Position numbers: made by a program
Part shown: piece after piece, positions 6,001-9,000 of the stretch
Layout of the letters: every line of letters starts with the position of its first letter
Position numbering within the stretch: position 1 is the first letter of the stretch
Source of the DNA: a virus
Lineage: Duplodnaviria > Heunggongvirae > Uroviricota > Caudoviricetes
DNA: 40,035 nt
Strand: one strand, 5' to 3'
IMG/VR virus record: IMGVR_UViG_2851938318_000014

Positions 6001-9000
6001 GGTGCCGTCCGTGTTTTCCCGGATGGAGACACAGCGGAACAGGCGACGACGCAGTGACGGCAGGGAGAGTCCCCATACACCGTATGTCTCCACACCATCA
6101 GGCAGGGTGCTGACCTGTATCCGGTCCGGCGCGGGGTGTGCAGTGATGGCCACGCTCACCGGCTTACCGCTGCCGTTAATCAGGTTCACCGTGGCGGCAC
6201 CTGTCTCCGGCAGGGTCACCTCACGGTCCAGTGTCAGGGTGCGGCTGGCGGCATCGATGGACAGGACACGTCCGCCGGTCATGGTCCCGGCATAGTCGTT
6301 ATCACAGATTTCAATAATGTCACCGGGTGTGTGACGCAGCCCCTGTGACCCGAGCGTGAAATCCACCGTCTGCGTTTCCAGCAGTCCGGTCTTTATCACC
6401 CACAGCCCGGCACGGTGGGCCTGACCGCGACTGGTGCAGCCGAACGCATCCATCTTCAGCAGGTTGCGCCCGTAGCGCAGTATGGCTTCCGGGTCTTCCA
6501 CCAGTTCCGTGGAGGTCTGCCAGCCGTTCTGCGGGTCGGTGTAATTCACCTCCACCGCCGTGTGGCGGTCCTTCAGGGCGCTGAAGCTGTAGCGAAACCC
6601 CACGCCGTTATCATCCACCACCACATCGCAGTTGGTGTACGGCCACACCACATCCGACGGGCGGTCCTGAACGAACGTCAGCGTCTGGCCGTTCCATACC
6701 GGCATACAGCGCATCGCCGAGCAGAAATCACTGAGCACATCCCACGCCTTACGCTGCTGTGACAGGTACGCATTAAAGGTCATCCGCGGCTCTGTCCCTC
6801 CGAAGCCGTCCGGGACACGCTGGTCACAGTACTGCCCGATGGCATACAGCGCCCATTTGTCCACGTCCGCGGTCCCCAGGCGTTTCCCCATCCCGTAGCG
6901 CGGGTGGGTCAGCATGTCCCACAGACACCAGGCCGGGTTGTTGCTGTATGCCGGTTTCAGACTGCCGTCCCAGATACCGCTGTAAGTGCGTTTTTCCGGG
7001 TCGTAGTTTGACGGCACCTGGATGATGCGACCGCGGATATGGTAGTTCACCGTCATCTGCTGGCCGCCGAACTGCTCCGCATCCACCTGCAGCCCCACAA
7101 TGGCCGTGTTCGGGTAGCACTGTTTCACATCGATGATTTCGGTGTATGACGACCACAGCGTCTTATTCTGCAGCTGGTCCGTGGTGCTGTCCGCCGTCTC
7201 CCTGACCATCCGGATGTTAAAGGGCCGGGGCGGCAGATTATCCAGAATCACCGACGCCAGGAACTGCGAGGTGGTCTTGCCGTTAATGGTGACATCCTTT
7301 TCTGTCACCCAGTTACCGTTACGCTGTAACTGAATCAGCAGGCGGACGGATGCCGGGTTACGGTCACCCTTTGAGGTGGTCTCCACCAGTGACTGCACCC
7401 CGAAGGTAACCCGCAGGCGGTCAATGTTCGCGGACGTAATGGTGCGCGTCACCGGTTTTGCCTTCGTCACTTCCACGCCCAGTCCGGTTTCAGCTCCGGA
7501 GGACTCAAAGCCTTCCGGTGGTGTCTGCTCCTGCTCCCCGGCACGCCAGACCGCAGTCACACCGTGTATCACGGGATTACCGTCCGTGTCCGTCAGCGGG
7601 GTTTTGTTCACCAGAATACTCTGCAGCCCCTTCACCGGACCTTCAATCGGCCCTTCACCAATGGCATCAATCACGCTCATCATCTGCGTGGACTTAAGAT
7701 TGTCCTTTGCCTCAACCGGCGTGTGCGCCTTGCCGCCACCTTTACCCACTCTGTCCCCCTCTCCTGTCTGATGTCTGAATCTGTTTATGCCCCAAAAACG
7801 ACAGGCACCCCGGAGGGTGCCTGTGTCATGACGGAATAAAATTTCTGAATTTCTTCACATTTTCTGTACGCCCCCGTGGCAGATATCATTCCCGGGCGTT
7901 ACAGTTTTTTCGGGCCAATAAAAACAAAACTCCCTGTGGTTAATCTTCATTTTCTGTTCCCGCAGCCTCCATACACTGCGGGATTTTTTTATGCTTTACC
8001 CCTGCCGCCCGATAACCACCACCTTCCCGTCACCGCCTTCATCACGGGTACTGATGTCCTGGGAGATTCGCCGTGAGCCAACCAGCATTTCACCGTAAGG
8101 CACCGGCATCGGGTTCCCCTGGGCAATCATGTTATCCAGCGACGAAAAGTACGTGTTCTGTTTACCGTTATCCGTTGCCCTGTATTCCGGTGTTTTTGGC
8201 TTCGGGGCCAGCATCTGTGCCACACCACCCAGTATCATGCTGGCACCCAGTGAAAACAGCATCGTGGTGGCAGAAAAACCACCGGCTGCCAGGGCTGAAC
8301 CCCATAACGCCATCGATGCCCCGGCAGTGAAGAAAGAGCCCACGATGGCTGCCGCCCCCAGCACAATCTGCAGTCCACCCTTTCCGGCCCCGGCCAGTCG
8401 CGGCACAATGTGGATGACCGTTCCCTCACCCAGCTGTTCGTGAAGACGGGCGTACACCGCCTCCGGTGCCGTGTCCTCACCGCGAATACGTATCTGGTAC
8501 CAGCCTTCGTTCATCTGACGGCGGAATCCCGGCATCTGCAGCGACAGGGCACGGATGGCTTCCGCTGCCGTGTTCACGTACAGGCTGAGGCGGCGGCCAA
8601 ATCGTTGCAAATCCCCGTGAAGGCAGATGCGTGCCAGTGGCGGTGACGCCAGACAGAATGCGTTCGTCGTTGCCATTTTTCAGAATACCTCTCCCGTTTA
8701 CTCAGTTGTTCAGGCAGATGGTGAAGCAGTTCACCGTTGCCGCAGTAAATGGCGGCATGATTGGCCACCGATGCGCCAAAGCAGCACAGCAGGATATCGC
8801 CCGCCTGTGCAGAGGACAGGGGCACCCGGTAAAAGCCGGTGACCGCCATATTGTCCAGGTAAAGGTTCTGACCGTTACGCCACCAGTCATCCTCACGCTC
8901 AAAATCCGGCATATCAATTCCCGCCAGATGGTATGCATCCCGGAACAGCGTGTAACAGTCCGTCACCCCGTGCTCAAAGCGCCGTCCTGTCAGATGTGGC

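Follow-up and report, generated by a model that had tools for sequence, protein, structure and literature searches.

The window analysed here, a 40,035-nucleotide stretch of tailed-phage DNA (IMG/VR record IMGVR_UViG_2851938318_000014), carries the tail genes I and J on its minus strand, the late-gene strand (Table 1). The product of gene I matches Pfam Lambda_tail_I (E = 6e-9), and the RefSeq annotation of an identical stretch agrees on the ends of both genes and places no feature between them. The genes are separated by a non-coding spacer of 246 bp (7750-7995) that holds one hairpin on each strand. A sequence-only reading of the window had described this spacer as an insert, with convergent terminators, between two genes that abut in lambda. 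The insert is real and amounts to about 180 bp relative to lambda; I and J do not abut in that phage, where they are separated by a 60-bp gap that itself holds a hairpin and T-run. Nor do the two terminators converge: the hairpins lie at opposite ends of the spacer and point outwards, and the converging pair is instead a small RNA gene and the late-operon transcription that leaves I.

Table 1. Features at the junction of tail genes I and J, in window coordinates.
Feature	Position	Strand	Description
Gene J, tail tip / host specificity	4273..7749	-	GTG start at 7749-7747
J leader	7750..7793	-	Shine-Dalgarno GGAGAGGGGG (about 7764-7755)
Late-strand terminator-type hairpin	7794..7824	-	Stem 7824-7815 / 7810-7801, loop 4 nt, then CGTTTTTGGGG; just upstream of J leader
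CRP-like box TCTGA-ATTTCT-TCACA	7844..7859	+	Matches 9 of 10 half-site positions of TGTGA-N6-TCACA
Weak -35-like hexamer GTGGCA	7876..7881	+	18-nt spacer to -10; predicted from position and conservation only
-10 hexamer TACAGT, small RNA promoter	7900..7905	+	Nine hexamer variants, all TAnnnT
Predicted PasB/EcOnc22-family small RNA, ~79 nt	about 7912..7990	+	Antisense to late operon; alignment and fold
AACTCC, second conserved motif of small RNA	7928-7933	+	Conservation profile, 59 unique cassettes
GTTAATCTTCAT, best-conserved stretch of RNA body, candidate seed	7939..7950	+	Conservation profile, 59 unique cassettes
Intrinsic terminator of small RNA	7958..7990	+	Stem TCCCGCAG / CTGCGGGA, 10-nt loop, seven U
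Tail assembly gene I	7996..8577	-	193 aa per RefSeq; stop TAA 7996-7998; ORF list

At the J-proximal end of the spacer, the late-strand hairpin has the form of an intrinsic terminator: a GC-rich stem-loop, with a perfect 10-bp stem of which 7 pairs are G-C, is followed directly by a T-run (CGTTTTT, the run itself at 7798-7794). Its folding z-score is -3.5 and the T-run is kept in 13 of 13 variants. Covariation is weak, with a single compensatory change from C-G to U-A, through U.G intermediates, among 12 close variants; an equally good result arises in 36 of 500 shuffles. The sequence-only reading had correctly seen a strong hairpin with a T-run here, with coordinates (7794-7821) that fall a few bases short of the stem, which extends to 7824. 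Such a GC-rich hairpin and T-run stands just upstream of J in lambda, in 11 IMG/VR loci with spacers of 56-85 bp, and in Enterobacter, Rahnella and Pantoea; across lambda and distant lambdoid tail modules the hairpins occupy the same place with other stem sequences. The lambda I-J hairpin (15445-15504 in NC_001416) is likewise on the late strand, GC-rich, followed by a T-run and directly upstream of the J Shine-Dalgarno sequence, but its stem is ACCGCC/GGCGGT, compared to ACAGGCACCC/GGGTGCCTGT in the window, and it lies only 20 nt after I because no cassette has been inserted there. On these comparisons, the hairpin is an ordinary feature of functional lambdoid phages and not part of the insert.

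The GTG start of J, also noted in the sequence-only reading, is common in this lineage. It aligns to the J ATG of both E2348/69 and lambda, and among the spacers compared J starts with GTG in 34 unique spacers (53 copies) and with ATG in 26 (35 copies); the GTG is in every case preceded by a strong Shine-Dalgarno sequence. It had also been suggested that the hairpin could attenuate J expression. Late transcription in lambda is Q-antiterminated, and for this reason we would not expect attenuation of J during lytic growth. Extrapolating from lambda late-operon biology, Q-modified RNA polymerase would read through the late-strand hairpin in lytic growth, and in the prophage the hairpin would stop unmodified transcription before J and lom. 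Our literature searches found no described function for the lambda I-J hairpin.

The remainder of the spacer has the anatomy of a small RNA gene on the plus strand. Its terminator, which had been noted at 7959-7990 and whose stem in fact begins at 7958, consists of an 8-bp stem (7958-7965 / 7976-7983) and seven T residues (7984-7990); a simple terminator scan missed it because the scan's loop limit was 8. Across family variants the stem is nearly invariant, and therefore offers no covariation support, and the loop ranges from 4 to 17 nt. We placed the 5' end of the RNA from the -10 element and the reported 5' end of the homologous RNA PasB in E2348/69, and in its predicted fold the transcript is a long AU-rich segment without pairing that leads into the terminator. 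The cassette of about 150 bp (7844-7990, plus strand) is best read as a small RNA gene complete in itself, equipped with a promoter and an intrinsic terminator of its own. In a lysogen it would yield an RNA of about 80 nt, in which an unpaired AU-rich body with the conserved GUUAAUCUUCAU precedes the terminator hairpin and U-tail. Such an architecture is typical of Hfq-dependent small RNAs that act in trans by base pairing, and the window's RNA may act as one, as its published relatives do. With its promoter elements intact, the window's own allele is probably expressed.

Those relatives have been described separately in two pathogenic E. coli strains. In EPEC O127:H6 E2348/69, PasB is an 83-nt, Hfq-dependent RNA with 37 RIL-seq partners on Hfq, mostly coding regions and 5' UTRs, and the transcripts with which it pairs include those of the host and of virulence genes (Pearl Mizrahi et al. 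2021, PMC8550237; Zhu, Shabalina and Storz 2026, bioRxiv 10.64898/2026.05.13.724894). In EHEC O157:H7 Sakai, EcOnc22/23/24 is about 85 nt long, binds Hfq and is destabilised in an hfq deletion (Tree et al. 2014, PMC4104026, Table S2). Expression, size and Hfq dependence of these relatives are taken from the published work, which includes Northern blots of PasB and EcOnc22. PasB maps to the minus strand of NC_011601 (1466343..1466261), antisense to I and J and starting 6 nt past the region of the I stop codon. It lies in a 240-bp spacer of the E2348/69 prophage PP6, which aligns end to end with that of the window. The Sakai I-J spacers of Sp15 (Stx1), Sp14 and Sp11 are identical to one another, and the sequence detected by the EcOnc22/23/24 Northern probe lies in them, antisense to the tail genes; the window spacer aligns with that of Sp15 over its full length. 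The suggestion that the plus-strand terminator marks a small antisense transcript is thereby borne out, in that the homologous spacers of E2348/69 and Sakai yield an Hfq-dependent RNA of 83-85 nt in the same place and on the same strand.

Placement of EcOnc22-24 on this gene required care with coordinates. When the published peak positions are read on the current Sakai record, the RNAs appear to lie at the J-proximal end of the spacer, an assignment that we rejected using the Northern probe and AgvB1 as anchors. The published peaks refer to an older Sakai record, and the AgvB1 probe lies about 130-160 nt higher in the current one, which we take to be 128 bp longer than the old. Given this shift, the EcOnc22-24 peaks fall on the PasB-like gene.

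At 76% identity to PasB and 76% to EcOnc22, the window's RNA shares with them a common terminator stem, AACTCC and (G)TTAATCTTCAT, and it is homologous to the described RNAs over their whole length. Like them it lies in the I-J spacer on the strand opposite the tail genes, its 3' stem-loop is followed by a U-tract, and its 3' end adjoins the I stop codon. The likeness to PasB thus covers the location in the I-J spacer of a lambdoid prophage, the antisense strand, a terminator flush with the end of I, the terminator stem, the (U/G)AUCUUCAU motif and the promoter module, whereas the 5' third and terminator loop of the window RNA diverge and the two alleles have no 28-nt exact word in common. The 2026 census of PasB, with 1,158 hits, used BLAST with a word size of 28 and coverage above 75% (bioRxiv 10.64898/2026.05.13.724894), and would not have counted the window allele because of this missing word. 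PasB is also reported as usually single-copy, in contrast to the window-type spacer, which is multi-copy in EHEC with a median of 4 places per genome. EcOnc22-24 agrees with the window RNA in locus, strand and module, and EcOnc22 also in its home in a Stx1 prophage; its body diverges outside AACTCC and GTTAATCTTCAT. On the strength of alignment and synteny, PasB and EcOnc22-24 are one family that the word-size-28 census undercounted, a link that we did not find in the searchable literature. A search of the spacer against Rfam 15, at gathering thresholds and permissively (E up to 10), returned no family match, the best permissive hit being a chance terminator match to anti-hemB (E = 0.06). Since Rfam 15 holds no matching model, family membership rests on alignment and synteny.

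Together, these data are best explained by a spacer built from two units of different origin, an inserted small RNA cassette and the late-strand hairpin that precedes J, a joint reading to which we assign a probability of roughly 85%. That the spacer is instead ordinary, non-functional intergenic DNA whose hairpins are chance inverted repeats has in its favor only that terminator-like sites in the surrounding 2-kb stretch do not exceed the shuffled expectation (3 versus 2.0). Single-sequence statistics are weak here, and the case for significance therefore rests on conservation. The spacer is kept in hundreds of genomes and phages, with window-type spacers in 147 phage records and in 785 of 5426 complete E. 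coli genomes (median 4 copies per genome); promoter spacing and half-sites are conserved, the position of the late-strand hairpin is constant across distant lineages, and the transcripts of homologous spacers seen on published Northern blots directly contradict a chance origin, to which we give almost no credence. The sequence-only reading had itself proposed that functional relatives sharing the spacer without transcripts would speak against it. The sharing is plain, with 99.6-100% identity in BP-4795 and many Stx1 and Stx2 phages, yet the absence of transcripts does not hold, because transcripts are documented. BP-4795 is a tail-proficient relative, whereas in genomes that closely match the window the prophage has an IS within its tail genes.

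Viewed across lambdoid prophages, the I-J junction is a cargo site that holds no cassette, one to three cassettes, or sodC. Among 74 sampled junctions, spacers of 56-85 bp carry no cassette, those of 234-343 bp carry one, those of 421-425 bp two, and those of 626-851 bp other cargo. In some prophages the gene for a Cu,Zn superoxide dismutase, sodC, occupies the junction and is likewise antisense to the tail genes.

Upstream of the small RNA, the geometry of the promoter is strongly conserved. The -10 equivalent in E2348/69, TAGTGT, spans -11 to -6 relative to the PasB 5' end as reported, and the -35 element among cassettes is GTGGCA or weaker. Many variants have a further, TATAAT-like box placed between the two elements. 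The CRP-like box, present in 91 of 93 unique segments, has half-sites (TCTGA-N6-TCACA) that are invariant in all 88 scored variants, around a central 6 nt that takes 6 forms. Its distance to the -10 element is 40 nt in 84 of these 88 and 39-41 nt in all, and it stays with the cassette where the DNA beyond is unrelated. CRP-like matches in the 40-kb window number 2 against 1.5 expected, which is chance level, so that only the comparative data count. Relative to the small RNA start, the box is centered at about -59.5 to -61.5; counted from the approximate PasB 5' end the value is -59.5, and a start at the G residues that come next would make it -60.5 to -61.5. A near-consensus site centered near -61.5 and combined with a weak -35 has the sequence hallmarks of a class I CRP promoter, as a prediction made with an approximate start site; a class II arrangement using the TATAAT-like box was rejected, as its spacing of about -44.5 is in the wrong phase. 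From this conserved architecture, we infer that cAMP-CRP activates transcription of the small RNA in class I fashion, which would tie the RNA to host carbon status. In EPEC, PasB levels are higher under the non-activating than the activating growth condition, which is circumstantial for CRP, and the changes in PasB and in Spf between the two conditions, which differ in more than glucose, run in opposite directions (PMC8550237; bioRxiv 10.64898/2026.05.13.724894). Neither of these two papers mentions CRP.

In two further readings the late strand of the spacer encodes a product of its own. One holds that the late-strand hairpin terminates a second small RNA, whose promoter would lie within the spacer and face away from the PasB-like gene. 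A well-conserved AU-rich block (7866-7827) does precede the strong hairpin and its T-run, and the palindromic TATAAT-like box at mid-spacer could be used on either strand. The conservation of the block is, however, explained by the CRP-like box and its fixed 40-nt spacing to the plus-strand -10, and our scan found no good -35/-10 pair on the late strand. In lambda-type spacers only 20 nt separate the I stop codon from the hairpin, too little to accommodate a promoter. Published data agree: the table of Tree et al. (PMC4104026) lists no late-strand Hfq peak at the Sakai spacers, and the EPEC RIL-seq tables hold no entry for the E2348C_1436/1437 intergenic region. With neither peak, RIL-seq entry nor promoter, we rejected this second RNA as quite improbable. 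Still less credible is a small late-strand protein translated from ATGAAGATTAAC (MKIN..., 31 codons in the window). A purine-rich stretch precedes its ATG, and the frame begins at the best-conserved motif of the spacer, but that motif's conserved core is GAAGATTAAC and not the start codon. Among the 59 unique cassettes the ATG is often ACG or missing, the frames shift, and their length ranges from 11 to more than 39 codons; we rejected this ORF as not conserved.

A more substantial question is whether the small RNA, once accepted as the product of the cassette, acts mainly in cis. It might pair with late mRNA after induction and direct cleavage, for example by RNase III, or interfere with transcription, thereby setting the level of J against that of tail genes further upstream; the reverse is also conceivable, with late mRNA titrating the small RNA. 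Every cassette, those in tandem arrays or beside sodC included, sits at the I-J junction in antisense orientation to the late operon, and any late transcript would match its RNA with perfect complementarity over about 80 nt. Against a mainly cis-acting role, PasB was discovered through its trans interactions on Hfq, with 37 partners; the small RNA overlaps neither the coding region of I nor the ribosome-binding site or start of J, which lies about 160 nt away; and lambda-type phages work without the cassette. We therefore consider a predominantly cis role unlikely, and favor a trans-acting RNA. More broadly, we tentatively propose, as a possibility that we hold to be somewhat doubtful as a whole, that the PasB/EcOnc22 cassette is a class I, cAMP-CRP-activated unit, present in 1-3 copies at the I-J junction and far more widespread and multi-copy in EHEC than the census indicates, which reports carbon status to Hfq networks and, being antisense to the late transcript, might couple this signal to the processing of J-region mRNA.

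The finding is real and largely known, the window's RNA being a variant of a described Hfq-binding small RNA in a Shiga-toxin prophage. Its main value is negative, as a seemingly odd insert proves to be known prophage cargo, next to a J-proximal hairpin and a GTG start that are normal for these phages. Added here to the published accounts consulted are the uniting of PasB and EcOnc22-24 in one family, the invariant CRP-like box, and the recognition of the I-J cargo site. Shiga-toxin phages carry the family, as do many further prophages of EHEC and EPEC, and a genome often has several copies; its RNA is unannotated in RefSeq and has no Rfam model. The distribution and regulation of these RNAs become directly testable once they are viewed as one family whose CRP-type promoter module is conserved and keeps a constant place in the tail operon.

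The cassette invites comparison with other cargo of lambdoid phages. The anti-sRNAs AgvB and AsxR (Rfam RF02702 and RF02703) are also short RNAs that bind Hfq and that lambdoid prophages carry as additional cargo, but they are sited downstream of PR' at the Q/stx cargo site instead of in the tail operon, and have another conserved 3' domain. Identity of the window RNA with either was rejected on locus and on the lack of any RF02702 or RF02703 match, at gathering thresholds or at E up to 10. A closer parallel is found in the morons of lambdoid phages (Juhala et al. 2000, as cited in PMC4104026), extra transcription units with their own promoter and terminator that sit amid conserved late genes and are missing from close relatives. 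The cassette has its own predicted promoter and terminator and lies between genes that are adjacent in related phages. Where it differs from morons such as sodC is in its product, a non-coding RNA of about 80 nt in place of a protein gene.

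The plus-strand unit in the spacer between tail genes I and J belongs to a small RNA family that has already been described, under two separate names. PasB of EPEC E2348/69 is an 83-nt RNA encoded on the minus strand of NC_011601 at 1466343..1466261 (PMC8550237, Table S6), between E2348C_1436 and E2348C_1437 and antisense to both (PMC8550237). In the current record these genes are a tail assembly protein (ending at 1466255) and gpJ (starting at 1466496), so that the I-J spacer is 240 bp long and PasB fills the third of it nearest to I, its U-tail adjoining the I stop codon. This spacer aligns end to end with that of the window, including both hairpins. 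EcOnc22, from the Stx1 prophage Sp15 of EHEC Sakai, is detected at ~85 nt on Northern blots, is destabilised without Hfq, and has the homologues EcOnc23 (Sp14) and EcOnc24 (Sp11) (PMC4104026, Table S2). We find that all three map to Sakai I-J spacers, identical to one another, on the strand opposite the tail genes; GTTAATCTTCATCGTTCTCTCCC lies within the reverse complement of their Northern probe and directly 5' of the terminator stem. The window RNA is 76% identical to PasB and likewise 76% to EcOnc22. All three have in common the terminator stem, AACTCC and GTTAATCTTCAT; among 59 unique cassettes no parts of the RNA body are better conserved. The feature is real, and the antisense small transcript proposed by the sequence-only reading is borne out by its relatives PasB and EcOnc22-24. 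A cis-antisense action of that small RNA on the late mRNA is less likely: neither a coding region nor the ribosome-binding site of J is overlapped by it, and its relatives are Hfq-bound RNAs that work in trans. When folded, the RNA has its terminator paired and its remainder mostly unpaired.

PasB is not linked with EcOnc22-24 in any paper that could be searched. The Pas RNA census of 2026 relied on blastn at a word size of 28 and coverage >75% (Zhu et al. 2026, bioRxiv 10.64898/2026.05.13.724894), settings under which both the window allele and the Sakai allele escape detection. That PasB is reported as mostly single-copy (PMC8550237; bioRxiv 10.64898/2026.05.13.724894), against a spacer that is multi-copy in EHEC, is probably a consequence. 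We add a modest amount to this: PasB and EcOnc22-24 are equivalent, the census undercounts them, their promoter module is of CRP type, and the I-J junction can be pictured as a cargo site. The EcOnc peak coordinates of Tree et al. 2014 (PMC4104026, Table S2) lie ~130-160 nt below the matching sequences in NC_002695.2. This offset is the same at the two places checked, EcOnc22 and the AgvB1 probe, and since the latter is shifted equally, the mismatch reflects a version change of the Sakai record; mapping these peaks onto the current record unadjusted misplaces them.

Stop and start codons (I, TAA 7996-7998; J, GTG 7749-7747) and the two stems confirm a 246-bp spacer (7750-7995) with a hairpin on each strand, as had been read from the sequence. 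Two other parts of that reading fall away: I and J do not abut in lambda, where the gap is 60 bp, and the terminators are not convergent, since they lie at opposite ends of the spacer and point outwards. J does start with GTG, as PGAP also calls it, but this is not unusual: of the spacers that include the J start, 34 unique sequences (53 copies) have GTG and 26 (35 copies) have ATG, with GTG always preceded by GGAGAGGGGGA or GAAGGGGGA. Both the GTG start and the hairpin before J are normal for these phages.

Features of the window and of related I-J loci (L numbers denote fetched genome or IMG/VR contigs)
Feature	Position	Strand	Details	Evidence
smpB and ssrA	start of window; tmRNA 698-1060	+ (tmRNA)		Rfam 296 bits (tmRNA)
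lom	3606-4205	-		ORF list, RefSeq, Pfam
Tail gene J	4273-7749	-		ORF list, RefSeq
Late-strand hairpin	7824-7815 / 7810-7801	-	perfect 10-bp stem, 4-nt loop, then CGTTTTTGGGG	hairpin scan
-10 hexamer TACAGT	7900-7905	+	TAnnnT, nine forms among segments	
Plus-strand terminator	7958-7965 / 7976-7983	+	8-bp stem, 10-nt loop, then seven T	hairpin scan
Tail gene I	7996-8577	-		ORF list, RefSeq, Pfam
ALIL frameshift pseudoknots	13180-13296; 33730-33846	+	two identical copies	
IS3-family transposase ORFs	13222-14112; 33772-34662			rve domain
STnc100	23240-23449	-		Rfam 177 bits
stx A-subunit gene	23807-24763	-		Pfam RIP, E = 6e-38
isrK, C4 antisense RNA, its a1/b1 target	28039-28237	-	cluster	Rfam 75, 67, 50 bits
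851-bp spacer	L189 1780-2630		same in L016, L190, L191, L198	
Tandem arrays	L067 324-1137; L058 4420-5033; L062 105-702			

The late-strand hairpin region folds far more strongly than shuffled sequences (z = -3.5). Lambda's 60-bp spacer carries ACCGCC-TGCG-GGCGGT and then TTTTGTCATTT, immediately ahead of the Shine-Dalgarno sequence of J, and eleven IMG/VR loci with 56-85-bp spacers have a hairpin of the same kind. At this position spacers of 338-343 bp have yet another, and so do tail modules of Enterobacter, Rahnella and Pantoea, in which protein I shares only 35-40% identity and the hairpin, unrelated in sequence, is followed by seven T. Across the 12 close variants of the window hairpin one pair changes from C-G to U-A, with U.G intermediates, although covariation statistics are weak; the T-run is kept in 13 of 13 listed sequences. 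This makes the hairpin an ordinary part of the I-J junction, conserved in position, with the small RNA cassette having been inserted between I and the hairpin. It may attenuate J, as the sequence-only reading suggested, but this would hold equally for lambda. The most economical reading is that the hairpin is a terminator that Q-modified polymerase would ignore but that would, in the prophage, keep stray transcription from entering J and lom. Two further candidates were rejected: a second small RNA ending at this hairpin is unsupported by published Hfq peaks, RIL-seq tables and a promoter search, and a late-strand small ORF in the spacer is not conserved among cassettes.

The promoter of the small RNA was compared across 93 unique spacer segments from IMG/VR and the fetched loci, of which 88 were scored. 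TCTGA-N6-TCACA, which agrees with the CRP consensus TGTGA-N6-TCACA in 9 of its 10 positions, stands upstream of the RNA in 91 of the 93. In the scored segments its half-sites are invariant while the central six bases take six forms, and the TAnnnT hexamer follows at 40 nt in 84 of 88 and at 39-41 nt in all. Counted from the PasB 5' end of E2348/69, which was assigned from coverage, the hexamer spans -11 to -6 and the box is centred at -59.5; a start one or two bases further on, at G residues, would place the centre at -60.5 to -61.5, where class I CRP-dependent promoters such as lac have it. A weak -35 (GTGGCA or worse) fits a promoter that depends on an activator. The box stays with the cassette even where the DNA beyond is unrelated, and it also heads a paralogous cassette with another body and the terminator TCTCCCGT/ACGGGAGA. 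These features are no more than suggestive of CRP control of the small RNA, to which we would give even odds; a lone match of this type within 40 kb is what chance would give. Circumstantially, PasB responds to activating and non-activating growth conditions in the opposite direction to Spf, which is CRP-repressed. Neither Pas paper (PMC8550237; bioRxiv 10.64898/2026.05.13.724894) mentions CRP or the promoter. A conserved TATAAT-like box also lies between the -35-like and -10 elements (7882-7899, plus strand, and the same place in other cassettes), reading GATATCAT in the window and TTATAAT, CAATAAT or TCATAAT elsewhere; relative to it the CRP-like box would be centred near -44.5, a position that suits neither of the standard classes of CRP promoter.

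The spacer is common, and functional phages have it too: BP-4795 and many Stx1a, Stx2a and Stx2c converting phages carry it with 99.6-100% identity. Matches exist in 147 phage records and in 785 of the 5426 complete E. coli genomes (median 4, maximum 11 places per genome), and no feature is annotated at the spacer. In the window, smpB and ssrA are succeeded by a lambdoid prophage whose late genes lie on the minus strand, with the tail genes running right to left as tape measure, M, L, K, I, J, lom and tail fibre, and the first 12 kb of the window are 100% identical to chromosomes of E. coli O111:H8 and related EHEC. The stx A-subunit gene, together with a RefSeq prophage carrying stxA1a and stxB1a in one closely matching O111:H8 genome, places the spacer in an Stx1-type converting prophage, as with EcOnc22 in Sakai Sp15. 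Integration was at ssrA, which directly adjoins the prophage end (a DinI-like gene and tail fibre genes, with prophage genes from ~1332 on). STnc100, which is related to PasD (Zhu et al. 2026, bioRxiv 10.64898/2026.05.13.724894), lies on the same strand as the stx A-subunit gene at lower coordinates. The isrK/C4 cluster, which in the matching genome adjoins antirepressor-like genes, looks like a P1/P7-type c4-ant immunity module within a lambdoid prophage. An IS3-family transposase ORF comes after each ALIL pseudoknot. In one O111:H8 relative, whose record and the window diverge beyond 12 kb, gpU, the tail tube region and early genes are cut short by copies of IS1203, which makes a defective prophage probable.

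Among 74 I-J junctions from IMG/VR, 11 have no cassette (56-85 bp), ~52 have one (234-343 bp), two have two (421-425 bp), and nine measure 626-851 bp. In the 851-bp form the small RNA and its -10 remain but the CRP-like box is gone; a Cu,Zn superoxide dismutase-like gene (motifs HGFHVHE and GGHFDP) sits upstream of the small RNA, is likewise antisense to the tail genes, and is separated from it by a GC-rich hairpin. Tandem arrays place two or three cassettes between I and J, each with a CRP-like box and -10, and include the paralogue with the other body (GGTGACTATTCG) and terminator. Some short contigs with E. coli-type lambdoid I-J genes (94-100% protein identity; L005, L009 and L016) come from assemblies labelled Streptomyces flavalbus, Parendozoicomonas haliclonae and a Clostridiales MAG, and L012, labelled a Geobacteraceae MAG, carries an Enterobacter-type module (40%); all four look like contamination or mis-binning.
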